A stretch of 64,000 bases of DNA from a virus (IMGVR_UViG_3300026549_000069:1-64000); one strand, 5' to 3'; positions 33,815 to 56,965 are shown, numbered from the stretch's first letter. A program made the numbers and translations. The notes: generated by a model not told the origin, from the sequence alone.

Positions 33815-33917
33815 ATTTTACCTATCTTTTAATTTAATGCCTATCAAATAAAAAAGTGGAAGAGGCGATAGGCTTACCTCTTGTCAGTGGGGGTACTAAT
33901 TCCACCTATCCACTTTG

Positions 33918-33949
33918 CAAAGTTAGAAAAATATATTTATATAGACAAT
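33918..33949 (-). promoter_or_regulatory. Bacteroidota-type promoter for the primase-helicase operon
   Basis: TAACTTTG at 33925-33918; partial -33 element (ATTG) at 20-nt spacing. Confidence 0.6.
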
Positions 33950-33993
33950 AGAAATTTCACCACTTTTTATGGTTTCAATATCAATCATACAAA

Positions 33994-36261
33994 CTATTCC
34001 TCCTCATATTTTTTAAGTTTTTCTTTTAGTTCATGAATACGCTTATTCAATGTAGCGATGCGTGGCAATCTCTTTGTCTTTTCTTTTAGCATTTCATTTT
34101 CTTTTTTCAGCCGCTCACATATATTGAACAATTTGCGGTTTTCATCCAATAAACGTGAATAATCCTCAACTTTTCGTTTAACCTCAACATATTCGATTTT
34201 AGATAATAGGTCGGGTTCATCAACTTTTATTAAATATTCATCTCCACGCAGATAATCAACAATTTCAGCCATTTGGTCAAAGGTTATGTAATCATCTATA
34301 TGAACCCCTTCTATTGGTGTACCGTGCCAATCTGGTTTCCACATACAAATGCTTTTTAATATAACATCCTCAATATAATCCTTTTGCTCTTCTGTTTTCG
34401 CTTTTAGTTTCGCCATAGTTAGACCTCCTCTCTTTTCTCTTTAATCCATTTAAACAAGAATGCGATATCTCCATCCAAATCGCTATCTTCTGTCTTCGCT
34501 TCTAACATATACCTTTTATTTAACCTCCGTTATTTTCTTTTTATTGTTTTGAAATATACCTCAAAATTATCATCCCAATTATTTGCCTCTGCTAATACCG
34601 AACAAATAGGTGTTCCAATAGACCAACAGTAGGCGCTATGCGTTTCGTATAACGAGCATTTAGGGCAAATCTGCTTGTGCTTACCACCGCCTGAATAGTT
34701 TTTGCACTTGCATAGATGATGATTTACTCCGTCTATTCGCAAACAAACTCTTGTATTTTTCGCCATAATCAATTATCATTTGTAAATTCATTAGTAGTCT
34801 TCGTTGTCAATATCCATATATCCAAAGAATCGGAACTTGTCGCAGTTGTACTTTTGGTGAAACACAACAGTTGAGGATTGAGTAAGATACCAATACCACT
34901 TAATTCTTTTCTTTGGAACTTTAGCAAGATATATGTTAAAGCAAAAGCATTTCCTCCCAAGCCCGATAACAAACTTGTTCATCCAGTTATATGTGAATCC
35001 AAATAGCCTAGTCATATTAAAAAGTTATTTCATAATGTTTCCTGTCCTTTGTCACAATGCGGATTGACTTTGTTTTACTACCCTCTTTGTATTCGATAGC
35101 AAGCGCAATTTGAATGCCGTAACGCATTTCAATAACCGCCAACACACTTTCGTCTGTTATAACGTTTTCTGACCAACCATAGCCTTCTTTATTAAACTCG
35201 TAGCCAGCATCTACTTGTTTTAGTTTTTCCATACTCTTGTTATTTATTCGTTCAACAAATCTTTCAGTTCTTTCTTTAATTGACAAAGCCTTTGCTTTAA
35301 ACCGCTAACAATACAGTTTCTTGTTTCTTTGTCAAGAAGCAATTTCTCTGTTTCTTTTATAGTTCCGTCACTCCACATTGGTAGTTGTTCGGAAACAATA
35401 GGTTCTTTACCATAAAGACGTGTTGTCTTTACACCGCTTTCTCGTACAGTAATACATAGTGTAGCATCTTTGTCATCCTCGTTTTCTAATGGGTGTTCCA
35501 ATGCGTCAATAAAGTCACTGATGTCGCCGACAAGTCTTGCCTTGTCCTCGAAGTTTTCTTTAATTGTTCTCATAGCCTTGTTGTTTATTTAATCCCCTTG
35601 AATATCCAATCATTTGTTGTCGTTCCGTCGGAGTATATAACCTTAAACGTATCTTCTGTATCAACGTCTATTTTCTTTTGCCCATCATTGTTTATAAAGC
35701 AGCAACTAAAAGCGGGTGCGTTCTTGCCTTTTGCAAAAGCGCAAAGACGCTTTACGCTTACCTCAACACCGTTTTGTGAATAGTAATAAGTTAGAGGTAT
35801 CACGCTGTCCCATGAACCACCCTCGCTATGGCTGTTCAGCACACCGTAAGGCAAATCACAAATGACACAATCAATCGAATTATCTGGAATGTCTTGCATC
35901 AATTCAAGGCAATCGCCCAAATAGATATTATTTGTTTCCATAATCATTTCTTGCTTTTAAACAACAACGCACTTACTTTGCTGTATATGCCAACATGGCG
36001 CAATTTCTTGATATTGTCAAATGTGCCATCATCATTGCATTGACGATAAGACTTGCCAAGCAATCTGGGAATTTCGTGCCTACCAATTCTTTCATCATCA
36101 ACCATGCGACTTAACAATTCAACCTCACTTTCAGTAGCCTCGCATTCACCACACATATTGGAATCAATCGTTTCTTGAACCCATTTGCCAAGACCGAATT
36201 TGTCGGCGATACGTTTAACTTGCGCAAGGTAGGTGCGACAAAGTTCTTGTAATCTTTCCAT
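33994..36261 (-). CDS. Cluster of small hypothetical ORFs (33994..34416, 34530..34772, 34791..35015, 35017..35286, 35244..35573, 35944..36261)
   Basis: Abutting or overlapping minus-strand ORFs in the track. Confidence 0.6.
35585..35947 (-). CDS. Chimeric ORF: N-terminal fragment of an N4/N6 DNA methyltransferase fused to unrelated sequence
   Basis: IYLGDCLELMQDIPDNSIDCVICDLPYG...WDSVIPL, then no further MTase motifs. Confidence 0.6.
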   Translation of the reverse strand: MIMETNNIYLGDCLELMQDIPDNSIDCVICDLPYGVLNSHSEGGSWDSVIPLTYYYSQNGVEVSVKRLCAFAKGKNAPAFSCCFINNDGQKKIDVDTEDTFKVIYSDGTTTNDWIFKGIK

Positions 36262-36266
36262 AACAT

Positions 36267-36818
36267 TTAGAATAGAGTTAATTCTTGATTCTCGTTTTCT
36301 GTTTCAATGAACATTTTGCGGAATATGTGGTAAAGCACATCGACAACAATGCTATTGCCAGCTAATTTGTATTGTGCGCTATTGCTTATTCCTGTTGCTT
36401 GTATGGTGTCAATGTCTTTGTCATCAACACCCATAAGGCGAAAACATTCGCGCGGAGTTAGTCTTCTAATCTTAAATTTTTTACCTTCCAATTCTTTTGG
36501 TAATTTTCCTTTCATATCAACATTGTTATATGGTTTTTCGTATATTCCAATCACATAAGGTTCTCTATCACTATAATAGTTGCAACACAGTGTCGGTGCA
36601 ATATCTAAAATACGCTTGTTGGGATTCTTGTATGGCCCCGTATTCGCAATTATTGCTTTGTATACTGTTTGACATTCTATTATTGTCGGGACAAGGTTCC
36701 CGCCAGCACTATAATCAGTAATACATGGGGAAATGCCTTGTTTGTCATAGACTACGCCTTTACTGGGTCGCATTCTGTTTGGCTTTATGTAATATCCCAA
36801 AATTTTAATCTTTCCCAT
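36267..36818 (-). CDS. C5-cytosine methyltransferase C-terminal part (TRD modules + motifs IX/X)
   Basis: IRRLTPRECFRLMGV and QYKLAGNSIVVDVL. Confidence 0.85.
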   Translation of the reverse strand: MGKIKILGYYIKPNRMRPSKGVVYDKQGISPCITDYSAGGNLVPTIIECQTVYKAIIANTGPYKNPNKRILDIAPTLCCNYYSDREPYVIGIYEKPYNNVDMKGKLPKELEGKKFKIRRLTPRECFRLMGVDDKDIDTIQATGISNSAQYKLAGNSIVVDVLYHIFRKMFIETENENQELTLF

Positions 36819-37565
36819 ATTGGATTATATTTATTTTCCCATCGGCTATTATTGTAGGAGCTATGTTTTTTGGGTCGTATATCGATTCCCCATTTGCACC
36901 TCGCTTATCCTTTGCTTGCGCCTGAAAAGCACGAATATCACCGTTAGGCATCATCTTATACTCAATCGTTCGTTTTGATTCGAAAATCGGTTCTACAATC
37001 ACAACAAAATTTGGAATAGACCTGATTGTTGGGAATGTATTGTTGCTATGCGTTTCAAGTGTAAATTCATAGTTGTAGGTACTTCCACATCGAATTGACG
37101 CAGAAAACAACTTTGTGACATCCACATTGTTAGCGATTTTCAATCTTGGTTTCTTCATATACTTCAATGATTAGAAAATCTTTTAATTGAATTGGCAATA
37201 TCGTTCCAGATTTCCCTACTTAATCCGTATGTTTCTTATCTTCATATATTTCTAAAATTCCCATTTCACGAAATCCTTGACGTGGATGTGTAATATTTCC
37301 TGCGTAATGGTGCGCACCGGTTATCGTACATGCTATCCCATTCGGCGCATTAAGCGCATATCTACCATCGCCCAACGGGTAAAATTTAGCAATTGGTGTT
37401 TGGCTGGTGATTGTCCTCTTTTTCATATTCATATATTTCTATGATTTTCCATCCGTTCCGCGATGCGAGATTGCCGAATTGTGGGGTTATTGTGCCAATT
37501 ATTTGTTGATTTTGTGGGAAACGACTGTTAAAATCATCATAAATCAACACTGCTTTGCTCGTCAT
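36805..37565 (-). CDS. Chain of short target-recognition-domain-like ORFs (37565-37386, 37432-37220, degenerate 37245-37130, 37158-36805)
   Basis: Lie between the MTase N- and C-terminal halves; contain GTIT/CTIT/PTII motifs and end in IExYE-like motifs. Confidence 0.6.
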
Positions 37566-38289
37566 TTCTTGTTGAGAAAAACTTTTCAACTCTAGATTCG
37601 CTTAAATAAAACTTTTTATCAACATTAGAATCAAGATAATCCCTTAAACGCTTTTTTAGTTCAAAGCGTTTCGGAAAATAATATCTTGGCGGATTGCTTT
37701 CATCATCAATACGAATAGACACAAGGAATATACGATTGCGATTTTGTGCAACACCATAATCTACAGCATTTAACAATTGCGGAAAATTCATATATCCCAA
37801 TCTTGCCAATTCGCTTTGCCAAAGGTTGAACATATCAATGAATTTCGATTGAACCATTGCCTCCACGTTTTCCAAACAAAGGTATTTCGGCTTTTTTGCA
37901 ATCACGGCATTGCGAACATACCAAATGATACTTGAACGTGTACCACTGCCCTCTGCGAAACCATGCTGTAAACCTGCCGCTGAAATCGACTGACATGGTG
38001 TGCTGTAAAACAACAAGTCGCAATCTGGAAAATTATCCCAATCAATCTTTGTTATATCGCCATAATTCTTATCAGCCCAATGCGGGAACAATGCTTTATG
38101 GGCAATCACCGCTGGCTGCTTGTCAATTGGTGATTTACTTTCTGGGTCAAACTCTGCCCAAGCGACAAGTTCGTAATCAAAATCAGGGAAATCACGTTTT
38201 AGCCTTTCCAATGCAAGACATTGGCTATCGTAGCCGCTGCATAACGTGGCTACCTTTAGTGGATTTTGCTTTGTGTATACCATAATCAA
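37537..38289 (-). CDS. C5-cytosine methyltransferase N-terminal catalytic part (motifs I-VIII)
   Basis: TLCSGYD (I), STPCQSIS (IV), LENVEAM (VI), YGVAQNRNRIF (VIII). Confidence 0.88.
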   Translation of the reverse strand: MIMVYTKQNPLKVATLCSGYDSQCLALERLKRDFPDFDYELVAWAEFDPESKSPIDKQPAVIAHKALFPHWADKNYGDITKIDWDNFPDCDLLFYSTPCQSISAAGLQHGFAEGSGTRSSIIWYVRNAVIAKKPKYLCLENVEAMVQSKFIDMFNLWQSELARLGYMNFPQLLNAVDYGVAQNRNRIFLVSIRIDDESNPPRYYFPKRFELKKRLRDYLDSNVDKKFYLSESRVEKFFSTRNDEQSSVDL

Positions 38290-39014
38290 AACAATGTTGG
38301 TGTAGTGTTAGGCTGTGTAATTCCTAATATAAAGTCACAGATAAAGTTCCTTGCATAGTCTGGAGAAATCATGCTACGTTCCTCGCTACATAATCCTGCA
38401 TGGTCAGCACTTTTAGACTCCCATACACGAAGTTCCTTTTTGGGCTTTTGAAACGAGCATCCAGATGTTGGTTCGCAATTAAAGAACCAATAACCAGTCG
38501 GCTTTGTGAAATAGTCGCCGCGCATTCTTCTATTTCTGTCAATCACTGATGGCTCTTTCAAAAAATTATTGTGTAGATAATGCAACGTGGAATATGGATT
38601 CTCAATGACAATTCGAAAATTTCGTAGCAAGCAAATCCCAACCATTTTGTATAGCAACTTGTAAAATTCATTCCTATTGTCAGACCGTTCCAGCATAGCA
38701 TCGAATTTTTGCTTTGTTGTCATTGCTTTATAATTTATATTTTCAAGTGTGAAATAGCAAGGATTCACTAACCCAGTAAAATAAATACAAGGGAAAAAAG
38801 CCATTATAAAATCATCGCTAGTCATTTTGTCAAAAATGCTTTCTTTACCATCATAGGCTTTGTTGATTTCGCCAAACAAGTCAATAACATGGTCGGTCTG
38901 CCCAAAATTATTTTGGATGTCGTAATCGAGAGCATCGTAGCCTAGCTTTTTAAATTCGTGCTTGAATGTGCCACTTTGCTCAAACAAACAATGTATTTTT
39001 CCTTTTATTTCCAT
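38286..39014 (-). CDS. Compact C5-methyltransferase-like protein
   Basis: HCLFEQSG (motif I-like), AFFPC (IV) and IENP (VI). Confidence 0.65.
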   Translation of the reverse strand: MEIKGKIHCLFEQSGTFKHEFKKLGYDALDYDIQNNFGQTDHVIDLFGEINKAYDGKESIFDKMTSDDFIMAFFPCIYFTGLVNPCYFTLENINYKAMTTKQKFDAMLERSDNRNEFYKLLYKMVGICLLRNFRIVIENPYSTLHYLHNNFLKEPSVIDRNRRMRGDYFTKPTGYWFFNCEPTSGCSFQKPKKELRVWESKSADHAGLCSEERSMISPDYARNFICDFILGITQPNTTPTLF

Positions 39015-39149
39015 ACTAATTTAATAAATGCCCCACACTTTCAATTGTGGTAGTGCGAGTACACACAATCTACTAATGTAGGGCAATTTAAGTTATCTTT
39101 AAAGTTTGCCTCGCACGCTAAACTTTGTTACCTAATCAAATCAACGCAA

Positions 39150-39180
39150 CAAAGATACAACAAACTTTTGAGATAACAAA
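39150..39180 (-). promoter_or_regulatory. Bacteroidota-type promoter for the methyltransferase cluster
   Basis: TTTG, 19-nt spacer, TATCTTTG. Confidence 0.75.
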
Positions 39181-39196
39181 ATATTTTAACATTATT

Positions 39197-39631
39197 TTAG
39201 AATGGCACGTTACTGTTCCCACCTTGCATTGGTGCTGGTGCTGGTTGGAATTGTTGCTGCATTGTTTGTTGGTTATATTGCTGCTGTGCTGGCTGGTAAT
39301 ATGGTGCTTGCGGCATAAATTGCTGCTGCTGGGGTTGTGGAACTTGTTGTTGTGGCACATCGGCACTTGCAGCAAAAGCAGTGGCATTAGTAAACCATTT
39401 GCCGTTCCATTCACGACTTTGTAAGTCGAAAGAAATGTTGTACACATTGCCGACCATCAATTTCATCTGTATCCACTTGTCATCGCCAAACACATCAAAG
39501 CAAATCTTTTTCGGATATTGCGCATCCAGTGTTTCGCCTACAAAAGCATGCTTGTTTGATGGTTTACCGTCACGCTTGCTGATATACTCCATCGACGGCA
39601 GTATATCCACGATTCTCAATTTGATTTCCAT
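39197..39631 (-). CDS. DUF3127-type SSB-like OB-fold protein
   Basis: QYPKKICFDVFG...SFDLQSREWNGKWFT, Q/P-rich tail ending VPF. Confidence 0.75.
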   Translation of the reverse strand: MEIKLRIVDILPSMEYISKRDGKPSNKHAFVGETLDAQYPKKICFDVFGDDKWIQMKLMVGNVYNISFDLQSREWNGKWFTNATAFAASADVPQQQVPQPQQQQFMPQAPYYQPAQQQYNQQTMQQQFQPAPAPMQGGNSNVPF

Positions 39632-39636
39632 AAATT

Positions 39637-40500: not shown

Positions 40501-40503
40501 AGG

Positions 40504-41408: not shown

Positions 41409-41542
41409 AATCGTTTTATTTGCGTTTTAAGGGGCTTTTACACCCCAAGGTGAACAACTAGTCATTTTTGATATTCCACACGATTGTAGATGCCTCAAAA
41501 TGCGAAATAGGGCGATTCTGGCATACAATGCGCATCTGCAAT

Positions 41543-42520
41543 TCATTTCTTCTCCCATTTTTGACGTTCTTTCGACCAGACAACAGTACCACGGCCATTG
41601 TTCATCTTGATTTCAGCCCCGTCAGGACGATTGTTGTTGTCATAGCCATCGAAGATATAATTCTCGTCAACACCAGTAAAAATATAGCACCCGTAATGCT
41701 CATTCCAATGAATGTTGCCAGTGGTGTCAGGACGATATTGCGTTTCACCAAACAAGCAGCCATAAACCTTGGACGGGTCATAGACAATCTTGCCACCGTC
41801 AAATATCACGTCATCGAAAAGGCGGTCACGAAGATAACGCTCAAAATCCCGCTGGTAGCACAATTCCCGTGTCGAAACATAAGCATGAATATGGCCTAGC
41901 ACCCGAGAACGGTCATCAACAGACAGACGTTCCCACTGCTCACGCGACTTTTTCTTGCTGCCCTTGCGATTGTAGGCAACCCAGCATTTTTCAAACATTT
42001 CGTCTTTTTCTTTTTTTTCTTTTTTGGATAGTTTTTTTCTTTTATTTTCTTTTTCTACAACATCATCTTGTTGTTGTATACTATCAGCATCTATGTGTAG
42101 TATACTAGTATCAGTATCTAGTATTGTAATATTATTATAGTATTGCCGATTTTCAACCCGTGTAGGAGTTTTTCCGATTCGGGTTTTTTCCGAGTCAGGT
42201 TTTTCCCCACACGGCTCAGATTCACAACAACGAAAAGCCTTGAGCACATATTTCACATTGCCAAAACAACCCTTGCCATCCTTGGACTGACCAACACGAA
42301 CCAACCAACCAGATGACATCAACTCTCCTACATACTTGCGAAAGGTGTCCGCACTGTAACCCAATTCAGAACACATCGTTTTCTGGTCGAAATTCCAGCC
42401 CGGTTCCTTGCAAGCCATGTAAACATACATGAACCTAGCACGGTCACTCAACGCAACATCAAATACCAAATCTTTCGGTATCGACTGCAAACCACATAAT
42501 TCACTTGAAAAATTACCCAT
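41543..42520 (-). CDS. Replication initiator-like protein (N-terminal wHTH)
   Basis: IPKDLVFDVALSDRARFMYVYM...GWNF...ELGYSADTFRKYVGELMSSGWL, then a low-complexity linker and FEKCWVAY domain. Start placed at ATG 42520, downstream of the structured leader. Confidence 0.7.
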   Translation of the reverse strand: MGNFSSELCGLQSIPKDLVFDVALSDRARFMYVYMACKEPGWNFDQKTMCSELGYSADTFRKYVGELMSSGWLVRVGQSKDGKGCFGNVKYVLKAFRCCESEPCGEKPDSEKTRIGKTPTRVENRQYYNNITILDTDTSILHIDADSIQQQDDVVEKENKRKKLSKKEKKEKDEMFEKCWVAYNRKGSKKKSREQWERLSVDDRSRVLGHIHAYVSTRELCYQRDFERYLRDRLFDDVIFDGGKIVYDPSKVYGCLFGETQYRPDTTGNIHWNEHYGCYIFTGVDENYIFDGYDNNNRPDGAEIKMNNGRGTVVWSKERQKWEKK

Positions 42521-42733
42521 AATACAAACTTTTTTATCATACCCACAACCAAACATACATACAAAAAACAACCACTGGCAATCAAACAATATTGTCTTCC
42601 ACTACAATCCGTCTAATCACCAGCGGCCGAAAAAAGTTTGTATATATGCTGAGGAGCGAAGTAATCCGAGATTTATTATACAAAATTGCCAATTGAATGT
42701 GGAAGATTTAGCAACATTTCAAAAATCACAGTG

Positions 42734-42765
42734 CAAAGGTAGTAGCTTTTCTTGAAATACACAAA
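42734..42765 (-). promoter_or_regulatory. Bacteroidota-type promoter (leftward)
   Basis: TTTG, 20-nt spacer, TACCTTTG. Confidence 0.75.
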
Positions 42766-43139
42766 TTTTTTCCCAAAAAAATGACAAAATTGATTTTAAA
42801 GCGCATTTAAGCACGTCAAACAAGCAAAATGAACAACTATACTACACAACACACAAAAACGTAACACAGGGCAATTGTGGACGTTTTAGGGGCATTATAG
42901 AATTATAAGTACAATATAACTTGATTTTTTCAAAAATTTTTTTCGTTTTTTCGAAAAAAGGGTTTGCACCACACGAAATCCACGTCCCTATCTCCCCCTC
43001 CCCCTCGGCCTAAAAGCTAGCTGAAACGCCCCTAAACACGCAAAACGCAAATATATTTGTATCAAACGAACAATTAACTTGAATATCAAACAATTGCACA
43101 CAAAATCACCTTAAACGCTAGCTTTTTGGGCGAAAATAC

Positions 43140-43460
43140 ATACAATCTAATTTAATATACAATAATTTCATTTTTCTGCAAATATATCTACTTTTCATAA
43201 ATTTTTGCTATTTTGCCCTAATATTAATATAATTATTACATAACTTTAATAACTTTACAGTATAAACTGTATAATACTACACTAACAGATAATACTAGCT
43301 AATAAACAGTAGTATACTAACAGTTTATATATCAACTAAATAACAGTTAATTAGTTAATTATTATAGATATGCTTAAATAGTATGATTATAATATTACTA
43401 TTAATAAATATCCATTTGGCTAGTATTTCCTTTTGGACTAGTCTAATTTGCTTTAATAAT
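43140..43460. other. Very AT-rich tract in the divergent intergenic region
   Basis: Strong AT enrichment with recurring TAACAG/AACAG words and an imperfect inverted repeat (TATAAACTGT at 43261 / ACAGTTTATA at 43320). Confidence 0.6.
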
Positions 43461-43591
43461 GTACCCACACGAAAGGGCTGGATTTAGTTAACAAACCTTT
43501 AAAAATAGGCTTATTTGTGAAAATATCTTTCGCCTATATATATGTACACACGAAATAATGCAGTTAACAGGCGTTAAAAAAATAGGAAAAA

Positions 43592-43623
43592 TTTGGTCAA
43601 TCCAGAAGGTGGGTGTACTTTTG
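43592..43623 (+). promoter_or_regulatory. Bacteroidota-type promoter (rightward, early region)
   Basis: TTTG 43592-95, 20-nt spacer, TACTTTTG 43616-23. Confidence 0.8.
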
Positions 43624-43628
43624 CAGTG

Positions 43629-44345
43629 TCGAAAGGGACAAAGGAACAACCCGCCACCGTAACGCGGCGCCCCACGTCCGAACAACCAAACAAGTTAGAC
43701 TAACGTTGTATGTTAGTTGAAGAGCACCTTGAAATGATGACAAACGGCATTGTACCGGATAGGTCGGAGCCAACCGTGAAAAGCTATTTAGCTCGTTGGT
43801 CCAGGAATTGACAATTCCCCACCTTCGTTAACACTTCTGGCAAAGGTGTAAGCGGTTGAGTTTTTAGACTAAAAGCGGTAACAAAGAGCCGAAGCGGGAA
43901 GGTATGCACAATGTACCGAGCTTAAAAACGTGTGAATGAATTGAATTAGCTAGTAAATTGTTCCACGTAAAACAATTGCGACGCAAAAAGCAAAATAAAT
44001 GATTTTTGAGCAAATTTGCAAAGCTATCTTTATAGCATTTAATTGCAGTGAGTCAATTGCAAGTGCAGCACACAATTAGCTATCATTATAGCACTTTTGA
44101 TTGTGTGCAGCGCTAAAGCAAAAATCATTGACTTTTGCCGGTTGCGGCAGCCTGAAAAAATAAGGGCTGCAGCGCCGCAATTGTTATTAGCCAGATTAAG
44201 CAACAAAAAACACTGGCGGACGACAGATGAGGAGAATAACAGAGTCGTTTTTTAGGAGCCTTCTCGGGCTCCCCGCCAACAAATTTAATTCACTAACCTA
44301 CTTAAAGCGCTTTTCGGTTGCAGGCCTCGGCCGTGGAACCGTGTA
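43629..44345 (+). ncRNA. Candidate large structured ncRNA or long leader
   Basis: No convincing ORF between the promoter and ATG 44350; many nested stems (see findings). Confidence 0.5.
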
Positions 44346-44349
44346 TATT

Positions 44350-44910
44350 ATGGCTACAACAAACAATGCTACCGCAATCCGCATCGACAACATGAGTCTG
44401 TTTCTCCTCGGCGAGAAAAAGGTCAACTTTAAGAACGTCCTTAAAGCAACGAAGGACGGCATGACTCTTAACCGTGTTATTAGAATGATGGCGAGCAAGG
44501 ATTGTTATCCCACACTCGCCGAGGACTTGAAGCTGTGTGGCATCAACTCTGCCGCCGAGCTCACGCTAAAAAATGTTAAGTCGTTGGTTGCGCCCGAGCT
44601 AAAGAAGGTGGAGACGGTAAAGAACGAGAACGGCACCGAGCGTGAGGTGGAAGTGCTTTGCACCGTCCGTCGCGTTTTTGAAACAGAGGAGGTACAATTG
44701 TACCGTGACGGCATGCCCTTGTGCAAAGCTGGCAAACCACTCACGCAAAAGCGTGCAAAGGAGGACGAGGACGGCGAGAAGGTTGTCAAGGAGTACAAGC
44801 TGTGCAAGGTGTCTGCATGGAGCATCGGCCTCCTCATGAACTTGCTTGCACAGTCGAAGGCTGCAAACGAGGAGCGTGCTCGCATTGCAGCTATGCAGGC
44901 TGCAAAGTAA
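44350..44910 (+). CDS. First early-region protein, hypothetical (basic)
   Basis: ATG at 44350 after an A/T-rich start region; GC-richer codon usage. Confidence 0.65.
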   Translation: MATTNNATAIRIDNMSLFLLGEKKVNFKNVLKATKDGMTLNRVIRMMASKDCYPTLAEDLKLCGINSAAELTLKNVKSLVAPELKKVETVKNENGTEREVEVLCTVRRVFETEEVQLYRDGMPLCKAGKPLTQKRAKEDEDGEKVVKEYKLCKVSAWSIGLLMNLLAQSKAANEERARIAAMQAAK

Positions 44911-45479
44911 TATACGGCAACAGACAACCCGTCCGAGCGGGGCCGTTGGGTAGGGAGCGGCAAAGGTAGTTAGGCTCGGAGCGTTTGCCCGTCACAGTGG
45001 GGAGGTGGCGGGCGAGGTCTACACAAAAAAGTTTGTAATATGGTAAATGTTTTTCACACAAGCGGGCTGTATTTATTCAGTGCCGCAAGCATTGCCGATG
45101 CACACAAAAAGTGCATCGAGCGGGGATTAAAAACATTTACGCAGTCAATGCGTAACGGCATACTAACTTTATATGTTACAGAGGTATGAGCGACAAAATT
45201 ACATTGGCATGCGTGATTAGTTTCATGCTATCGATTTGCGCTATGTGTGGTGCGTTTATCTGCATCGATATGGGAATTGTGGACGGAAATAACGTTTGGG
45301 CTCAGGTTGCATATACGAGCCCAGCAATTGTCTTCGCCCTATCATTGTGGGCAATCGAAATTGCCGAGACCATAGAGAGAAAACGCAACAATAACTAAAC
45401 AATAATAACTCCTGCCGCAAAAGGTGGGCGCAATCCTTTGCTACTTTGGCGAGCGAAAGAGCGAAAGTAGCGGTTTATT

Positions 45480-46793
45480 ATGGCAAAGATTAAGAATTTG
45501 CAGACAGGTGAGGAGATGACCGTTAATAACAGTGTGATTCGTAACGGCCAATTGTGGGTGTTCAACAAAACGCCAAAACTTGGCGAACGTTGGTTCGCAA
45601 AGCGTCCGATGTTGTCGCAAGACGGCACGGTCGAAGGCACCGCGCCAAACCTTGCGCTCCGTATGACCATTGCGGAGCCGTGGGTGCTTGACACAAGCAA
45701 GCCCGAGAGAAAACAGCGTACGCCCAAGGTACGCCAACCCGAGCCCGAGCAGCCGAAGGAAACAGAAGTGCCAGAGCAACCGATACCGCAGCCAGAGCCC
45801 GAACAGCCGCAACCGACACCACAACCCGTGCAACCTGCTCCGGCATTCAACGTCACAGGTCTTGAAGGCGGGTTGGCGCAGGTGTTCGCACCTGTGTTTC
45901 AACAGGTAGCGGCACAGATAGAGGAAAACATCCGCGCAAAAGTGGCCACAGAAATTGCCGACTTGAAGCGTGTCGCCGAGGAAAAAGCGCGGACGCTCCG
46001 CATTGAGCTGCCAGATGGAACAAAGACCAAGGTCGAAGGTCTGACAATGGACGGTTTTGATGATATGGTGCGAGATTTAGCTGCTGGCTATGCCGTGTAT
46101 ATGTACGGCCCCGCAGGAACAGGCAAGTCACACACAGCAAAGCAACTTGCGGCCGCACTTGGTTTGCCATACTACGAACTTAATCAGGTTGAGTTCGCAC
46201 ACGAGGTTGCCGGCTATGGCGATGCAAGCGGCAAGTATGTGCCGACACCACTTTACGAGGCGGTCACAAAGGGCGGCTTGCTGTTCTTTGACGAGTTTGA
46301 CCGCAGCGCACAAAGTGCGACAACTATTGTCAACACATTGTTGGCAAATCGGCGTTTTACATTCCCTGTCGTTGGCAATGTTGAGGCACACCCGAATTTC
46401 CGTGTGGTTGCCGCAGGTAATACGACTATGACTGGCGCAAGTAACGAGTATGTTGCCGCCAACGTGATTGACGCATCAAGTCGTGACCGATTTGTGTTTT
46501 ACAAAACGTATTACGACGAGCGCATTGAGCTGCCTGTTATGGCTGGCGGTGATAAAGAACTTGTGGATTTCATGCAAGACTTGCGACAATCAATTGAGAA
46601 ATCGCACATCTCGCTTGTTGCAAGTATGCGTGCAACCAAGTACTTGCACACGCACGACAACAACAAGCGCACCGCACTTGAGCGCGGTTTGTTCAAGGGC
46701 ATGGATGCCGAGGACATTCGTGTGCTGTACAACAATCTTTCGAGCAAAGGTCTGATAACGAGCTGGGCCGATGCAATGCAAGAATTGTGCTAA
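45480..46793 (+). CDS. MoxR/CobS-like AAA+ ATPase with a P/E/Q-rich linker
   Basis: GPAGTGKS, LLFFDEFDR, HPNFRVVAAGNT and SRDRF motifs. Confidence 0.88.
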   Translation: MAKIKNLQTGEEMTVNNSVIRNGQLWVFNKTPKLGERWFAKRPMLSQDGTVEGTAPNLALRMTIAEPWVLDTSKPERKQRTPKVRQPEPEQPKETEVPEQPIPQPEPEQPQPTPQPVQPAPAFNVTGLEGGLAQVFAPVFQQVAAQIEENIRAKVATEIADLKRVAEEKARTLRIELPDGTKTKVEGLTMDGFDDMVRDLAAGYAVYMYGPAGTGKSHTAKQLAAALGLPYYELNQVEFAHEVAGYGDASGKYVPTPLYEAVTKGGLLFFDEFDRSAQSATTIVNTLLANRRFTFPVVGNVEAHPNFRVVAAGNTTMTGASNEYVAANVIDASSRDRFVFYKTYYDERIELPVMAGGDKELVDFMQDLRQSIEKSHISLVASMRATKYLHTHDNNKRTALERGLFKGMDAEDIRVLYNNLSSKGLITSWADAMQELC

Positions 46794-46812
46794 TCTTTTA
46801 ACACTAACGACT

Positions 46813-47619: not shown

Positions 47620-47668
47620 TATAAACCACGGGGCGGTATCATCCGCCCCACTAAAACAAATAAACGAC

Positions 47669-50245: not shown

Positions 50246-50246
50246 T

Positions 50247-51023: not shown

Positions 51024-54000
51024 GAGCAAAGTATTGTGACACATTTCGTGGACGGTTATACGGCGAAAACGAAAAAGAAGTCTTTGTGATAACAGACAAT
51101 GGATTTACAAAGATTTCTGAAATGATTGGTCAAACCATTCACCGCTATGGCAAACCAGTCAACTATAAATATCAAGTTGAAATTACCAAACTTGACACAG
51201 AGGAACATGGTTGGTATAGCATCAAAGGGCGCAAGATTAACTAACACAATTAAAAATTAACATTATGAAGTTCGATAGTAAGAAATTCGCAAAGTGGGAA
51301 AATGAAACACATATCCCGAAAGAAATCATGGACATCGTAAATGCTGTTGCCGAAAAGATTGGTTGCGGTGAAGTTGAGGAAAGTACAATTGCTATTTACA
51401 ATCGTGGTGGCCAAGTTATTGGTTGGGCAAAGGGGTTCAGCCTGACGCACTGCACAAGTTCATACGAAACAGGACCGACACCAGACTATTCAAGCGCAAT
51501 GGCAAAATGGTTAAAGGGTCTAGGTTTTACGATTGAAAATTCTTACGGCGACAACGGCATGGATAGTGCAACGAATTGGCACGATACATTCTGGACACAC
51601 GATTTCACTTACAAGCCGACAGAGGTTTGGGAAGAAAGTTTTATAATTTGGGAAAATAAAGATTATATTGAATGAAATTATGAAACAGATTAAAGGTTAC
51701 ATGGCAACATTCAGACGGCGGATGACACCGTACTGCATTGAATTTGATGATTGCTATGATATTGTCAAGCGTGATGGCGGCTGGGCTATCAAGAAAGATG
51801 GCGAGTTTATGAACGATTATATCTATCATTCGAAATGGGCGGCAGCGTCTAGAATCGGTAAATGGGTTAAGTGATGACGCTTCAAATACTACAAAGATTG
51901 AACGTATTATGAACTGGCAATACAACGATGGCGGCAGGTCAAAGTATTTTGCAGCACGAAAGGTTGGCGACTGTGTTACTAGGGCAGTCGCCATAGCAAC
52001 AGGTCGTGACTACAAAGAAGTGTACAATGAAATAAAGACTGTCGTTGGTTATACACCACGCAATGGCATCTACAAAAAAGACACAAAGAAAGTGATGGAA
52101 CATTTCGGTGGCGTCTGGGTTGCTTGCAGTGGGATTGGCATAAAAGAAAGGGTACACCTAAATGACGCAGAAATGCCACTACAAGGACTTTTTGTGTGTA
52201 ACTTGAGCAAGCATGTCACCTGCGTAATTGATGGTGTTATAAATGACACCTATGACCCGTCAAGAAATGGAACACGAATGGTTTACGGATATTGGAAATT
52301 TTAAAAGTTATGGAAACAAAGGAAAAACAAATTCAGGCAATTAAAGATGCATTCGAAAGGGCTATGGCCGAAATTAACGAGAGAAGAGAATACAGGATGC
52401 GTAACTACTATGATTGCATTGATGATTATTCTTTCGGTGGTATTTGCGACAAAGCAGACAATGAACTTGAAGATATGTTGCGTATGCAACGTGACATCAA
52501 AATAGAGCAAGTTGAAAATGATGGTTTCTATTTTAGGACATCGATGTTCTATCGGTTGTGTGACAATGACGGCAATGCCGCTTTAGGCACAAAACACGGA
52601 CAATGGGGAGAGTTCTTTGTTATCAATGACAAGTGCGTCAGTGTGCCAAAGCGATTAGCCACACTAACAAAGAAAGGCTATAAACTTGAACAAGTAATAC
52701 GGACATATAAGTGCGAACTTAAAAGCATTAGAAACGGGCATGCCATAAACAAGTCAATGACTGTTATCGAAGAAAAAGTTATTGACATTACGCAAGACTC
52801 TATGCCTGATTACATCGGTGGCTTGCCATACATCGATTGGCAATATGAAAGTTATTTTAAAAATTAAGAGATATGGAATTTGAAAAAGATTTTATTCCTC
52901 GCCCTTACGAAGTAAAGGCAAAGGAGCATGTAAACAAAGTGTGCCGTGAGGATGAAATATCTTTCGGTTTTCATTATAACGAATGCGAACAAAGTCACCG
53001 GTATAGCGGTTTCACGAATGGGTATACGCAAGCAATTACAGATGCTATATCATTCCTGAAAAGCAAAGGAATGACGGACATGGCGGTAAGAATGCAGGAG
53101 GCTTTGCTATACGGAATAACAAACAAATAACTAAAACAATGCGACTATGACAAAGAAAGAAAAAGTACAGATTGACAACATTCTGTTTAGACTTAACACA
53201 ATTCTAGAATGTGCAGATGCAGACAATACGCTGTGCGTTGATGCCGATGGTGCATACACACATAATGCAATGGTATTGCGCAACCACATCCACGCAATCA
53301 TAAAGGATTTGCAAGTTTCTATTGAAAACGATTGTTTACTAATCAAAGATTATGTAAGTTAGTTATGGCAAACAAAGTAATTGTCCGCGACACCAAAAGC
53401 GGAGACGAAAAAGAGACGATGATTTATGACGCACGATTCAGTGCCGAATACACTCTGCAATTAGTGTGGTGTAGCGCACATCGTGTGAACGTGTTTGACA
53501 AGAAGATGCTTGAACGAGCAAAACTTGATTTCAATTACGAAACTGATTTTGTCTGGTTTGAAATAGGCGATGAAACTTATTCATGCGCAAAGCAAAGCGA
53601 CAGGGTAGATGTCTATGATGGCATCAATTCAAGCCCGCTGGATTTCTAATAACCGTGGCGGCGGTTCACTATCACCACCCGCCGCCGCAAACAACGACAA
53701 CGACAGCTATGACACAACTTGAACAAAGAATGTACAATGCTATCGCATCGGCTTGCGCAAAATACATTGCAAACGAAAGCATTGATTGGGAACAACGCAA
53801 ATATGAATGCGCAAAAGATTATGCCATTGGTCTTATGACATCAAAATGGTATGACGGCACGGAGCAACAAGCCATTGAACGTGGCATGGAATTTGCGGAG
53901 AACTTCATTGAATTGTACAAAAAATAACGACTATGAGCAAAAAGAAAGTGTGCTGCATTTGTGGCATTGAATTTAATGGTCGTGGCAATAATCCTCGACC

Positions 54001-54258
54001 TGTCAAAGATGACGGTGAATGCTGTGATAAATGCAATTATGCCTATGTGCTGCCAAAAAGAATTGAAAACGTAATTAGCAAAGTACGAAAATGAAAACTT
54101 TTGATGTATTCGCCATTGTTGTTTTTGGCATCATGGCATTGGTGACTTTTGTTGCTGGATTCTACAACCCGATTCATTTCCTTTTCAGTGCTTGTTGCGT
54201 GGCAATGGTTGTGATTGCTTACAAGGAATTGGAAAGTGAAAATGATAAAGAATGTTAA
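51020..54258 (+). CDS. Cluster of small hypothetical ORFs, including Zn-finger 53933..54094 and membrane peptide 54091..54258
   Basis: Track ORFs plus manual translation (MSKKKVCCICG...CCDKCN). Confidence 0.55.
51909..52304 (+). CDS. Papain-fold-like hypothetical protein
   Basis: GDCVTRA...SKHVTCVIDG..NDTYD, a putative Cys-His-Asp set. Confidence 0.45.
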   Translation: MNWQYNDGGRSKYFAARKVGDCVTRAVAIATGRDYKEVYNEIKTVVGYTPRNGIYKKDTKKVMEHFGGVWVACSGIGIKERVHLNDAEMPLQGLFVCNLSKHVTCVIDGVINDTYDPSRNGTRMVYGYWKF

Positions 54259-54262
54259 AATA

Positions 54263-54294
54263 TTTGGTGGGTTCAAAAAAACTATGTACTTTTG
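54263..54294 (+). promoter_or_regulatory. Bacteroidota-type promoter
   Basis: TTTG, 20-nt spacer, TACTTTTG. Confidence 0.8.
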
Positions 54295-54449
54295 CATCGC
54301 AATCGAATAACGGCGGTCGCAAGGACATAGTGGATTGACTTGTGGATTACATCCACACTCAATATATACCAACAAAAAGGAACATCCCTGCAACCTTCCG
54401 TTATAACTCAGAGGAGTTTGGTTGCAGGGAATGTTCTTTTTTGTTGACT

Positions 54450-55181
54450 ATGGCACAATTACGAAGAAAAATAATGACCGAATGCAAAGGACAACCACGA
54501 CTACAAAAAGCCGTGGCATTTGCTGTTTTTCTAAAATACAAACTCGGTCAATCTTCCATGATGCGCAATTATTCTGTCAACAAGATTCATACTTTGACAA
54601 AGATTTCAGCAACTACTATCAAAAAATATCTACCAATCTTGAAACAATGCGGATTTGTCGCTTTCTGCGGCAAAAACAATCAACACCTGATTGTGTCAAA
54701 ACTTTGTTCTCATACAAAGGGGCGCAATGTAAAGATTGATGATTTTTGCTTTGATTCATACAAAGATGTTTATAGGTCGTTGCGTGCTTATTTGGCATTG
54801 ATTATACAATCGCATAAAGATTTTGTTAAACGCTCGATTCAAATTGTTGCAAACCCAAAAAATTGGGAAGAATTTAAAGCAGCAAGAAGAAATGTGAAAC
54901 GACTCGTCAAGCAAGGTGTCTTATGTGGATTGTGTGATAAATACAAAGAGTATGGATTAAGTTTTAAGCGCATTGCTAGTGAAACTGGCAATTGCGCAAG
55001 AACTGCACAAAGAATTATGAACTATGCCATCAAAAAAGGTTGGGTATCTAAAAAAAGAAATTTCAAAAAGATATTCACACCAAAAATTAATCGTAGGCAA
55101 TCAGATATGTTTACTTTCTCAACTTTGAACAACATATACATTGTCTACGCTAACACATACGAATTGAACATTCTATTGTAG
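54450..55181 (+). CDS. Basic protein with two wHTH-like segments (DNA-binding/replication-associated)
   Basis: SVNKIHTLTKISATTIKKYLPILKQCG and LSFKRIASETGNCARTAQRIMNYAIKKGW; start set at ATG 54450 after the leader hairpin. Confidence 0.6.
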   Translation: MAQLRRKIMTECKGQPRLQKAVAFAVFLKYKLGQSSMMRNYSVNKIHTLTKISATTIKKYLPILKQCGFVAFCGKNNQHLIVSKLCSHTKGRNVKIDDFCFDSYKDVYRSLRAYLALIIQSHKDFVKRSIQIVANPKNWEEFKAARRNVKRLVKQGVLCGLCDKYKEYGLSFKRIASETGNCARTAQRIMNYAIKKGWVSKKRNFKKIFTPKINRRQSDMFTFSTLNNIYIVYANTYELNILL

Positions 55182-55224
55182 TGGTATGGTATTATATTAG
55201 TTGGTAAAAAATAAAGGCGCATTT

Positions 55225-55734
55225 ATGACTTACAAAGGTGACAATATTATCGGAAAGCCATCACTAGGTTTAATTCAAGTTTATATTGAAGAAAAAAGCC
55301 TAGGGTTAATTACACCGCAAGAGGTTTTTGATTATTGGGATAAAAAAGATTGGTTGACAAAGAAAGGTTCTGAAGTCAAAACTTTAGAGTCGGCTATCAA
55401 TGTGTATAATAGTATTGTCGTACAAAAAGCATTAAAGGGGAACAAAAAAACAAGGAAAGAAATAAAAAGTGCTTTTACTGCAATTAAAAAGAAAAACAAA
55501 CAACCTAAAAAGCATTCAGAATATTCAGAACAATTAAAAGATGAAAGATGGAAAGCATTTAGGTGGTTTGTTATGAAAGTTCGTGGTAACGAATGTGAAA
55601 TATGCAAATCTACAAATAACTTACAAGTACACCATATTGAATACATTAAAAACGCAAAAGCATGGGAATATAATGTAAATCAAGTAATAGTTGTTTGTAG
55701 GGAATGTCATAAGAAAATACATAATATTAAATAA
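55225..55734 (+). CDS. HNH endonuclease
   Basis: CEICKSTNNLQVHHIEY...VVCRECHKKIH. Confidence 0.85.
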   Translation: MTYKGDNIIGKPSLGLIQVYIEEKSLGLITPQEVFDYWDKKDWLTKKGSEVKTLESAINVYNSIVVQKALKGNKKTRKEIKSAFTAIKKKNKQPKKHSEYSEQLKDERWKAFRWFVMKVRGNECEICKSTNNLQVHHIEYIKNAKAWEYNVNQVIVVCRECHKKIHNIK

Positions 55735-55753
55735 GATAATTTAAATTGGAACA

Positions 55754-56620
55754 ATGAAATCAAACGAGGTAACAAAATTCATGTGGTATATGTGCAACAA
55801 GTGGTCGCTTGACGAGGCACGGGAATTGTTCGGTGACAATCTTGGAGCACATATCTACCAAAAGAAATTGCATCTACAAGGAATTGGCTACGACACGCTG
55901 TACTGGTATGGTGACCTAGATGAAACGTGCCGGCAAAAGATTGTTGACCGCGCAAATGAAATCTACAAAAACGCGTAGAATTTGATTCTAGCGGCTTTAA
56001 TCCACAAAGCTGATTAACTTATCATTTCACAAACAAAAGTCGAACACGGGGCAAATAAACCACTAAATTTTCAAGTTATGGACAATACGAATGACAACAA
56101 GAAATCAAGTGCATCGCAGAATGCGATGATTCTCGCCTATATGCAGGACGGAAACAAGATAACATCTTTGCTTGCTTTGAAGCTTTTCGGCTGTATGCGT
56201 CTAGCATCACGAATCTGTGATTTGCGGGAACGTGGATATGACATCAAGGCTGAAAAAATCCAAGTGCCTAGCGGTAAATATGTGACAGAGTATTCACTCA
56301 ATCAATAATTAATAATATGGCTTATGGAAACGAAAATTTGTAAATGCTGCGGGAGAGAACTTCCAATTGATGATTTCCGTGTTACGAAATTGGGTCGCAG
56401 AAACACTTGCAACGAATGCGTAAGCAAGAAAATAGCGGATGCTAAAAAAAGAAAAAATGACGGATTGACATTTGAGGAGGAATTGGAAAGAGCAAAGACA
56501 TTGCGGCTGCAAGATTTCACACCGCGTGAATTGATGACCGAATTAAAGCGCCGTGGTTACGATGGCAAGCTGACATTCACACAGGTGATTGAAATAGATA
56601 TTAGCAAAATTGGGGAATAA
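55754..56620 (+). CDS. Small ORFs: hypothetical 55754..55978, wHTH 56078..56308, Zn-finger 56324..56620
   Basis: RLASRICDLRERGYDI (wHTH); KICKCCGRELP...TCNECV. Confidence 0.6.
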
Positions 56621-56650
56621 GAACAATCAAGGTTAACAAAGGTTAAACAT

Positions 56651-56681
56651 TTTGCAATATCAAAAATAACTTGTATCTTTG
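56651..56681 (+). promoter_or_regulatory. Bacteroidota-type promoter for the tRNA/ThyX-like unit
   Basis: TTTG, 19-nt spacer, TATCTTTG. Confidence 0.8.
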
Positions 56682-56775
56682 CATTGTAAAACAACCAAGG
56701 TTGGCGTTTAACTTAATTATTAACAATATGGGGTGGTTTTACACTAAATTTGCGTAACTTGGTTGTTTTACATTT

Positions 56776-56847
56776 TGGCGATTGGTGTAATGGTTTGCAC
56801 GTCAGTTTTTGGCACTGAAAGGGCAAGTTCAATTCTTGCATCGCCAA
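56776..56847 (+). tRNA. trnQ: tRNA-Gln(UUG)
   Basis: Acceptor TGGCGAT/ATCGCCA, D arm GTGT/GCAC, anticodon stem TCAGT/ACTGA with loop TT-TTG-GC, T arm GCAAG-TTCAATT-CTTGC; CCA not encoded. Confidence 0.92.
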
Positions 56848-56965
56848 CAAGTTGAAAGGTTTTCGTTAATGGTGAATGATTGCCGGGCGTGCAGTGTAAC
56901 AATTACAAACCATTAAAAATACATTGCAGCCCGACTTTTTACTAACATTTAAAAGAATTGTATAT

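Follow-up and report, generated by a model that had tools for sequence, protein, structure and literature searches.

On balance, we favor the view that four leaders in this viral genome (S1 to S4) are structured 5' RNAs of replication-module genes in which the loop of a hairpin pairs in cis with a complementary word. Their likely role is that of a cis-acting RNA switch gating the start of translation and/or read-through, by a mechanism that we infer. Comparison with related leaders indicates that the loop pairing has very probably been selected as an RNA feature at S3, at S4 and in the loop of S1.

A preliminary description had proposed that five leaders of unrelated sequence share one plan, in which a short upstream word, X, finds its complement, anti-X, within the loop region of a long hairpin located shortly before the start codon. 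The shared plan holds for several replication-module leaders, which are indeed unrelated in sequence, and is not supported at the fifth site, S5. The parts of the five leaders are given below; coordinates are positions in the window, the 64,000-nt stretch IMGVR_UViG_3300026549_000069:1-64000 that was analyzed. The X and anti-X words are present at all five sites.

33812-33925, minus strand: S1, primase-helicase operon leader of the family 2 type
33925-33918, minus strand: S1 -7 box; upstream X at 33910-33905, ATG at 33814
33882-33877 / 33865-33860, minus strand: stem of S1 hairpin B; loop 33876-33866, anti-X at about 33873-33867
33855-33850, minus strand: S1 U tract; X'' at 33845-33839, X' at 33826-33821
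39012-39157, minus strand: S2, leader of the DNA methyltransferase cluster
39157-39150, minus strand: S2 -7 box; hairpin 39150-39127, ATG at 39014
39126-39101, minus strand: S2 hairpin P1; its 7-nt loop is X, 39116-39110
39090-39025, minus strand: S2 long hairpin P3; its 7-nt loop is anti-X, 39059-39053
42520-42741, minus strand: S3, leader of the replication-initiator gene
42741-42734, minus strand: S3 -7 box; P1 42712-42688, with X in its loop at 42706-42699
42629-42569, minus strand: S3 P3, with anti-X in its apical loop at 42602-42595; U tract 42568-42563
42556 and 42520, minus strand: S3 candidate ATGs, the latter more likely
54287-54476, plus strand: S4, leader of the HTH_36 protein gene
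54287-54294, plus strand: S4 -7 box; P1 approximately 54299-54320, with X (54307-54313) mostly inside its loop
54333-54363, plus strand: S4 P2; P3 54370-54446, with anti-X in its loop at 54398-54404
54450 and 54474, plus strand: S4 candidate ATGs; the T tract pairs with an upstream A tract
56849-56968, plus strand: S5, spacer 3' of tRNA-Gln (56776-56848)
56866-56873, plus strand: S5 X; hairpin 56882-56935, whose 21-nt loop holds anti-X at 56909-56916
56966, plus strand: S5 ATG; a T tract follows the hairpin

Homologs of the S3 gene begin at the 42520 ATG. TAnnTTTG boxes lie upstream of S1, S2, S3 and S4, the four leaders described as following a Bacteroidota-type promoter, and tRNA-Gln precedes S5. 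Genome-wide, approximately eight long leaders (at least 100 nt) are found behind such boxes; four of these carry the plan and all four belong to the replication module. The U tracts vary: S3 has a U6 tract, S4 a T6 run within 54439-54446 and S5 a T5 tract, while S2 has only AUUUAUU.

The long hairpins are real at four sites, with energies of -25.6 (S2), -30.8 (S3), approximately -42 (S4) and approximately -20 kcal/mol (S5), whereas the S1 hairpin is short (6 bp). The stems of S3 (about 25 bp) and S4 (about 33 bp) are nearly perfect. Whole-leader folds gave z-scores of -1.1, -3.1, -3.1, -7.7 and -1.6 for S1 to S5, respectively. The S3 fold is specific to the sense strand (-39.2 kcal/mol, z -3.1, versus -22.4 kcal/mol, z +0.1, for the antisense), the antisense strand of S2 also folds more weakly than the sense, and S5 has a z-score of -1.6 on either strand. 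The minimum free energy folds put both X and anti-X in hairpin loops at S3, at S4 and at S2, where each of the two loops has 7 nt; this placement is weak at S5 and does not apply to the upstream X of S1. X is complementary to loop nucleotides only and never to the terminator stem, which speaks against the earlier suggestion that X acts as an anti-terminator.

Within this genome alone the pattern is not clearly above chance. Shuffling of the upstream segment gave p = 0.005-0.08 per site, and there is no genome-wide excess: a loop-to-upstream match of at least 7 nt occurs in 7% of 57 intergenic hairpins, compared with 12% in the downstream control and 9% in the reversed control. A scan for loop-loop complementarity returned two pairs of at least 7 nt versus 0-1 in controls. 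These statistics are weak; it falls to the relatives to decide whether the pairing is real.

At S3 and S4 the relatives show compensatory changes between X and anti-X in independent lineages, the outcome anticipated in the preliminary description if the pairing of X to the loop were selected. In S3-type leaders from six independent lineages the words differ, yet plan and complementarity are preserved, and X is located at +23 to +40 relative to the -7 box. For each of the seven leaders of the S3 subfamily (six lineages), an upstream word at constant position is complementary over 6-9 nt to the loop of its strongest 3' hairpin, with per-leader p values of 0.0003-0.025 and a Fisher combination, by our own arithmetic, of approximately 1e-9. 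Relatives of S4 (L192, L185, L189, L197/L188, L186 and L187) likewise retain a complement of 7-16 nt made of entirely different words, in about five to seven lineages, and here X is located at +9 to +15 relative to the -7 box. Eight of the ten S4-family leaders have such a loop-upstream complement of 7-16 nt (combined p ~3e-6), and in the remaining two anti-X is in the loop of the preceding hairpin. Since a small upstream hairpin carries X in its loop at each of S2, S3 and S4, we predict a loop-loop (kissing) interaction at these sites and not the invasion of a hairpin by a free strand. The U tract of S4 is itself paired with a co-varying A tract, and for this reason its long hairpin may have been selected as a helix and not as a terminator.

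The most extensive comparative evidence comes from an alignment of 21 replication-initiator (Rep) leaders, A6, which defines core family 1. All of its helices are supported by covariation: 94% of the cells are paired and 27 pairs have changed on both sides, a level of pairing that none of 500 shuffles reached and that compares with 31-48% in slid controls. These leaders contain three co-varying copies of the word: the P1 loop holds X, the P3 loop holds anti-X, and X' is located at -5 to -12 relative to the AUG. Pairing reaches 92% for X:anti-X, where five of eight pairs are doubly changed, and 92.5% for anti-X:X', where five of seven are doubly changed and some G-U pairs occur; X' occasionally differs from X in a wobble-compatible manner. 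The start-adjacent X' is present in 20 of the 21 leaders. In the same number of loci X (counting X') occurs twice and anti-X once, with no arrays nearby and no further word copies within 1.5 kb; the exception, L123, has X once and lacks X'. S3 also has X and anti-X without X', as do L114, L116, L155 and L121. Given the many G-U pairs within the stems, the sense-strand fold, the location of the words in loops, their copy numbers and the independence of the loop word from the type of N-terminal domain in the downstream protein, the element appears to act as RNA rather than as duplex DNA.

A covariance model built from A6 (R1), which scores P1, P2, and P3 with its GAAA / GAGUA internal loop, found 38 matches at E <=0.1 in the fetched loci, 36 of them clear (E 6e-30 to 8e-12). 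The bridging leaders L114/L115 were marginal (E 0.06). A search of the window with filters off gave no match at S2, S3 or S4, the best window matches having E >1 and lying elsewhere. As R1 misses S3, the link of S3 to core family 1 rests on the shared plan and the intermediates.

The S1 leader belongs to a different family, and here the preliminary description was right about the loop and wrong about its partner. The S1 loop co-varies with two downstream copies, 33845-33839 and 33826-33821, the latter beside the ATG; the upstream X is not among its conserved partners. The loop word and the two downstream copies have changed in concert in L005, where the upstream X is unchanged, and an alignment of S1, L005 and L065 (A1) contains compensatory changes in both hairpin stems. 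In each of the 12 family 2 leaders, a word of 6-10 nt that matches the loop ends 2-6 nt short of the ATG (X' of S1 is 6 nt before it), usually accompanied by a second matching word about 20-24 nt before the ATG.

The loop pairing of S2 is probably a selected feature as well. Two complete 7-nt loops are exact complements of each other, and the leader is 96% identical to that of L112 over the alignment (97/100 in the leader bin), while neighboring coding DNA is 45-95% identical. Against L112, the S2 and S3 leaders are conserved islands (96% and 93%; 100-nt bins 86-97%, with most coding bins at 45-90%). The S2 words are identical in L112, the sole relative found, and no diverged homolog of the S2 leader was recovered. 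For S5 selection of the pairing is doubtful: the shuffle p value is approximately 0.06, the loop is also complementary over 10 nt to the D-arm region of the tRNA, and no conserved counterpart was found; L102 has the tRNA-Gln without such a hairpin, and in its other relatives the downstream gene lacks any leader. S5 is not supported as an element of the same kind, and the gene that follows it, previously called ThyX-like, is not ThyX-like by Pfam or PHROGs. S5 is most likely, on the simplest reading, the terminator of the tRNA unit.

In the model that we favor for S1 to S4, transcription would start at the Bacteroidota-type promoters, and the apical loop of the long hairpin (anti-X) would pair with a 7-8-mer in the same leader. 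At S2, S3 and S4, with X in a small upstream hairpin loop, this would create an intramolecular kissing complex; the long hairpin resembles a terminator in that a U tract follows it near the start codon. At S1 and in most S3-type relatives the loop would also, or instead, engage a matching copy 2-12 nt before the AUG. X and the start-proximal X' could then compete for pairing with anti-X, their common partner: pairing of the loop with the start region would mask ribosome entry, and pairing with X would leave the start region free. We regard competition in this exact form as tentative, and are slightly more doubtful than confident of it. Because S2 to S4 have no copy near the start codon, the part of the model that concerns translation does not directly apply there; at these sites the kissing contact may lock the terminator-like hairpin and thereby restrict read-through into the replication genes, until the contact is broken by a protein or RNA. 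As a separate structural point, an 8-nt loop that is fully paired is sterically demanding.

Several other explanations deserve consideration. The leaders could be classic transcription attenuators, in which the hairpin and U tract terminate most transcripts and X invades the hairpin or a phage antitermination factor reads the kissing complex. A hairpin with a U tract does lie 100-150 nt after the promoter at S3 and S4, less clearly at S2, and the core family 1 stem ends in G-G-U followed by U4-5. However, X has no complement to the stem beside the U tract and, being complementary only to the loop, cannot prevent the terminating helix from forming; the paired U tract of S4 and the conserved X' at the start codon of most relatives, which points to translation, make this reading quite unlikely. 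We find it improbable, too, that the 25-35-bp hairpins are RNase III-type cleavage sites or 5' stabilizers of early mRNAs for replication, with a loop contact that only aids folding. The near-perfect stems of S3 and S4 are directly 5' of start codons, and RNase III sites this large are present in phage early transcripts, among them the lambda N leader and the T7 early RNAs, but processing leaves the second and third complementary copies, co-varying at fixed positions, unexplained, and hairpin B of family 2 has just 6 bp.

A signal at the level of DNA, with X, anti-X and X' as operators or iterons that co-change with the specificity of an initiator or repressor, would account for a 7-8-bp word present in three copies, two in direct and one in inverted orientation, inside some 120 bp beside a replication-initiator gene, and for words that fall into few discrete types. 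It is nevertheless very improbable, as one word type occurs with unrelated N-terminal domains and one domain type with different words, the 1.5-kb surroundings hold no additional copies, the words always sit in loops of strand-specific folds whose stems co-vary with G-U pairs, and X' sometimes departs from X in ways that wobble pairing tolerates. That the complementarity arose by chance beside ordinary terminators or hairpins, and regulates nothing, we hold to be extremely improbable overall. It would fit the in-genome controls, the p value, missing counterpart and rival tRNA match of S5, and the invariance of the one S2 relative, which offers no comparative test. Covariation across many lineages excludes it for S3, S4 and the S1 loop, and the exact complementarity of two complete loops within a conserved island speaks against it at S2.

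The loop words might also act as specificity determinants comparable to plasmid incompatibility determinants, a speculative idea that we consider unlikely. Leaders whose backbones are 92% identical differ in X, anti-X and X' all at once, and the words fall into only about seven discrete types, which reappear in leaders of unrelated backbone and before proteins with unrelated N-termini. If the idea were true, the words would be private RNA-RNA addresses, for example for a trans-acting RNA or for leader-leader contacts between co-infecting phages; they would set the rate of replication initiation and amount to a programmable, phage-borne copy control in Bacteroidota phages.

Bacteroidota phages are abundant in the gut and rumen. 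Both the promoters and the ribosome binding of their hosts are non-canonical, and, to our knowledge, regulation in these phages is little charted. At least three separate, covariation-supported leader RNA families precede replication-module genes and are confined to them, in place of the phage-wide system envisaged earlier. None is in Rfam: in the window only tRNA reached the Rfam 15 threshold, and E-value scans of the leader regions and 12 related loci returned nothing relevant. We read the families as a real RNA control element, of which the literature searched made no mention. A survey of IMG/VR intergenic regions mined 10,006 candidate structured RNAs from viruses and phages, hundreds of them within 25 nt upstream of genes; its text describes no replication-initiator leader or loop-loop pairing (PMC10690425). 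Common to the families is a simple design in which a single hairpin loop is matched by one to three complementary words, each in a fixed position, and this design suggests a way for phages to meter the synthesis of initiator, helicase and methyltransferase. Words that switch rapidly and yet always match constitute a natural set of orthogonal RNA-RNA pairs.

Among known systems, intrinsic-terminator attenuators and riboswitch platforms share the order of promoter, structured leader, strong hairpin with U tract, and gene, and here too, at S3, S4 and S5, a G+C-containing hairpin is directly followed by a U tract. In contrast to them, our leaders have no alternative helix overlapping the terminator stem, and no ligand-binding fold or Rfam match. 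Antisense loop-loop kissing controls plasmid replication in ColE1 (RNA I/RNA II) and R1 (CopA/CopT). As in those plasmids, fully complementary 7-nt loops would make the first contact and loop words define specificity classes; there, however, two molecules from opposite strands meet, whereas both loops are on one transcript here. A close parallel is the pseudoknot reportedly formed in the rep mRNA leaders of ColIb-P9 repZ and pMU720 repA (Asano and Mizobuchi 1998; Athanasopoulos et al. 1999; both cited in PMC10724649). In the IncI-alpha, IncB and IncL-M plasmids, as in the phage leaders, the loop of an initiator-leader hairpin pairs with a start-adjacent word, the pairing serves as a translation switch (for the phages, our inference), and the loop sequence sets specificity. 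The start-adjacent word is present at S1, in all family 2 leaders and in 20 of the 21 core family 1 leaders, and absent from S2 to S4. In the plasmids, pairing activates translation, an antisense RNA from the opposite strand blocks it, and a leader peptide is involved; the phage leaders are not known to have either an antisense RNA or a leader peptide, and no separate small ORF stood out in them. Unlike those plasmids, the present hosts are Bacteroidota-type phages that do not rely on Shine-Dalgarno pairing, and their leaders carry a cis copy of the word (X) in the loop of an upstream hairpin.

The window covers bases 1-64000 of the 76,423-bp IMG/VR record. The genes that concern us, and the leaders (S1-S5) that precede them, are as follows.

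Coding blocks of the window and genes downstream of the five leaders
~28.2 to 42.6 kb, minus strand: genes diverging from a 1.6-kb non-coding region
44.2 kb onward, plus strand: genes diverging from the 1.6-kb non-coding region
S1, downstream: HNH-like 74-aa ORF, then a DnaB-type primase/helicase
S2, downstream: DNA methyltransferase (PHROG 757), adjoining a C5 methylase
S3, downstream: replication initiation protein, Rep (PHROG 270 and others)
S4, downstream: HTH_36 protein
S5, downstream: 56966-57520, PHROG 6721, function unassigned

The preliminary description had proposed a single plan for all five leaders, in which a short upstream word (X) is complementary to a word (anti-X) in the loop of a long hairpin before the start codon. 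All ten words of the five pairs lie where it placed them, with duplex energies of -8 to -13.5 kcal/mol, and Bacteroidota-type promoter boxes (TAnnTTTG) were found before S1-S4, the four leaders for which it had named such a promoter. Folding reproduced the long hairpins at S2, S3, S4 and S5, but at S1 the hairpin is short. Folding also showed that at S2, S3 and S4 a small hairpin displays the upstream word in its loop; in S2, two whole 7-nt loops are exact complements of each other.

The proposal that these matches exceed chance fared unevenly within this genome. Shuffling of the upstream segments gave p = 0.005-0.08 per site, but a census of 57 intergenic hairpins revealed no excess over controls, with loop-to-upstream matches of at least 7 nt in 7% compared with 12% for downstream and 9% for reversed controls. 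A loop-loop census returned two pairs of at least 7 nt versus 0-1 in controls. About eight leaders of at least 100 nt follow a TAnnTTTG box and four carry the plan, which is above expectation, the count being post hoc. Because the shuffle and census results are weak and the leader count was made after the fact, the window alone is insufficient to settle selection versus chance.

Related loci were sought through Rep homologs, taken both from viral contigs and from a large protein collection. Megablast with a 24-kb region found nothing similar in the phage collection, and a single-protein scan of viral contigs with Rep returned no locus. In a close relative (L112, Rep 80% identical), identity over the aligned leader is 93% for S3 and 96% for S2, and the 100-nt bin holding the S2 leader is identical at 97 of 100 positions where most coding bins reach 45-90%. 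Both leaders are conserved islands in L112, but uninformative as to covariation. More distant loci (L114/L115, L116, L155, L121 and L123; Rep 40-48% identical) share the plan of S3: a promoter box, the word at 23-40 nt, some 100 nt of spacer, a long hairpin and the ATG. The upstream word varies by lineage, and the apical loop of the long hairpin contains its exact complement; the L114 pair includes two G-U pairs. For an automated test, a seed-and-extend picker selected each leader's strongest 3' hairpin, and the longest loop-to-upstream complement was sought. It recovered a complement of 6-9 nt in all seven leaders of the S3 subfamily (each p = 0.0003-0.025; Fisher combination over six lineages ~1e-9). 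The covariation anticipated for homologous leaders is therefore present at S3, with the complement kept and the words changed in six lineages. As to the gene itself, the longest Rep ORF begins at TTG 42589. The 337-aa query begun at ATG 42556 is covered to 96% by homologs of 320-325 aa, which indicates ATG 42520 as the real start.

Of the Rep-type genes retrieved by protein alignment, most carry a TAnnTTTG box ~150 nt before the ATG and a well-alignable leader. The larger family of these leaders, core family 1 (21-sequence alignment A6, covariance model R1), has the following parts.

Elements of core family 1, 5' to 3'
P1: hairpin showing X in its loop
P2: small palindromic hairpin
P3: long hairpin with a conserved internal loop, GAAA / GAGUA
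P3 cap: 4-bp stem closing an 8-nt loop that contains anti-X
3' end: U-rich stretch, then a second copy of X (X'), roughly at -5 to -12 relative to the AUG

Across the 21 sequences covariation was observed in every helix, including X:anti-X and anti-X:X'. In 20 of the 21 loci there are exactly two copies of X and one of anti-X; L123 is without X'. R1 recovered 38 instances at E <=0.1 in the fetched loci, 36 of them clear and several outside the seed. It did not find the window's own leaders, and bacterial genomes gave no match in a pattern scan for the apex of core family 1. The words fall into about seven types. Leaders with 92% identity in the backbone can differ in type, and the type is independent of the N-terminal domain of the downstream protein. 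A reading of the words as binding sites suited to that domain of the initiator was rejected, since the words do not follow it. At L110/L117-L183, a family-1 leader precedes proteins with a common C-terminal domain and at least five unrelated N-terminal domains; the leader travels with the C-terminal module or the locus and not with the N-terminal domain. The asymmetric internal loop of P3 (e.g. L130:945-1092), GAAA opposite GAGUA, is nearly invariant. It resembles a loop-E or sarcin-ricin type motif and could be a protein-binding site.

The same behavior is seen at S4. A single-protein scan of viral contigs with the HTH protein returned one locus only. HTH_36 homologs at 50-91% identity have the leader backbone of S4, and the nearest (L191, L194-196) keep the window's word pair. 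In L192, L185, L189 (16 nt) and L197/L188 the words are entirely different, still complementary and in the same places, with X 9-15 nt past the promoter box and anti-X in the P3 loop. Complementarity was tested per sequence in this alignment (A8), as the loop words are in shifted register and column-wise pair counting is unsuited to them; the combined p for the family is ~3e-6. Here, too, the expected covariation of X with anti-X was borne out. L186 and L187 (the latter overlapping L003 on the same contig) carry pairs of 8 and 12 nt, with anti-X in the loop of a hairpin before a separate terminal hairpin. Two in-frame ATGs of the HTH_36 gene, 54450 and 54474, are conserved, and the closest homologs are annotated from the second, giving 235 aa.

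At S1 the loop pairing stands, but with a different partner from the upstream X named in the preliminary description: the loop co-varies with downstream copies. The leaders of L005/L096 and L065 align with S1 and show compensatory changes in both small hairpins. In L005 two positions of the hairpin B loop are altered and both downstream copies change to match, while the upstream X is unchanged. The plan also precedes Rep-type genes in L124, L128, L131, L134, L136, L145, L150, L157 and L164. These S1-type leaders (family 2) consist of a closing stem and U tract, hairpin A, hairpin B and two downstream words, the second usually 20-24 nt before the ATG. In all 12 leaders examined, the hairpin B loop has a match of 6-10 nt whose end lies 2-6 nt ahead of the ATG, and it matches upstream sequence only in the window and L065; the selected partner of the S1 loop is therefore the translation start region. 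The upstream X was rejected as functional partner, being absent in that role from L005, L134 and the core family-2 leaders.

Family 2 (L131:1400-1539, L136:1130-1323 and others) further has a conserved 5' G-rich word with two possible partners, a mid-leader C-rich word or one past hairpin B with a U tract behind it, which suggests putative alternative terminator and anti-terminator folds. The X 8-mer of S3 recurs at 33863-33856 (minus strand), in the 3' strand of the S1 closing stem before the U tract, so that a terminated S1 leader RNA would end complementary to the S3 hairpin loop. Its 7-nt core, CTTCCAC, is kept within the stem in S1 relatives with the first base varying, and the recurrence may be coincidence. 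Downstream of S1, the 74-aa HNH-like ORF (33590-33814, PHROG 374) shares ~56 nt with the start of the primase/helicase ORF, and the L005 homolog of this 74-aa ORF forms the N-terminus of a 376-aa ORF; the window phage may carry a split or frameshifted gene.

S2 has the clearest geometry of the leaders. Methyltransferase relatives (80 loci, viral contigs) lie mostly within operons and show no comparable leader, a pattern scan for the S2 P1 stem with free loop gave six chance matches in coding DNA, and a metagenome scan with the PAPS-reductase neighbor gave just one 1.4-kb fragment, without leaders. On balance, we consider the S2 kissing leader probably real.

S5 found no support as a fifth site. 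It is preceded by a tRNA, not a promoter, its hairpin loop is 21 nt and A/U-rich, and shuffling gives it a p of about 0.06. The loop (56905-56916) has a 10-nt complement in the D-arm region of tRNA-Gln (56785-56800; duplex -12.1 kcal/mol), stronger than its match to the X first proposed, and the single relative keeping the tRNA is without the hairpin. Relatives of the downstream gene (10 loci, viral contigs) are mostly within operons and show no comparable leader. S5 is probably the ordinary terminator of the tRNA unit. The ThyX-like label given to the downstream gene is unsupported: the gene has no Pfam match and belongs to PHROG 6721.

Between the divergent operons, the non-coding region (42559-44226) has G+C-rich hairpins around 43608-43679 and, on the plus strand, two strong hairpins at 44057-44121 (-23.5 kcal/mol) and 44129-44186 (-26). 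When 42500-45500 was scanned against Rfam with E-values as high as 10, just three weak and unrelated matches came up, none of them to a pistol ribozyme at 44926-45023. The region may serve as an origin or encode a long structured RNA.

The words might instead act as DNA-level operators. The stems are rich in G-U pairs, S3 folds far better on the sense than the antisense strand, the words sit in loops with no arrays of them near the loci, and they are independent of the N-terminal domain; on these grounds structure at the transcript level is favored over protein-binding sites in duplex DNA. Within a transcript, one loop would have up to three alternative partners, one of them where the ribosome lands. 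Competition would be the simplest interpretation, with the loop on the start region being off and the loop on X being on. At S2-S4, where only X is present, contact would lock a terminator-like hairpin near the start codon. Classic attenuation and RNase III-type processing are the alternatives to such competition at the RNA level.

As the preliminary description had suggested, we compared the leaders and their relatives with Rfam 15, and no family matched; full-text literature searches found no description of these leaders. They could be among the unnamed entries in a catalogue of about 10,000 viral RNA candidates (PMC10690425). Among published systems, the nearest to these leaders is the pseudoknot in the repZ/repA leader of IncI-alpha, IncB and IncL/M plasmids (references in PMC10724649), which differs in that it uses an antisense RNA acting in trans and also a leader peptide.
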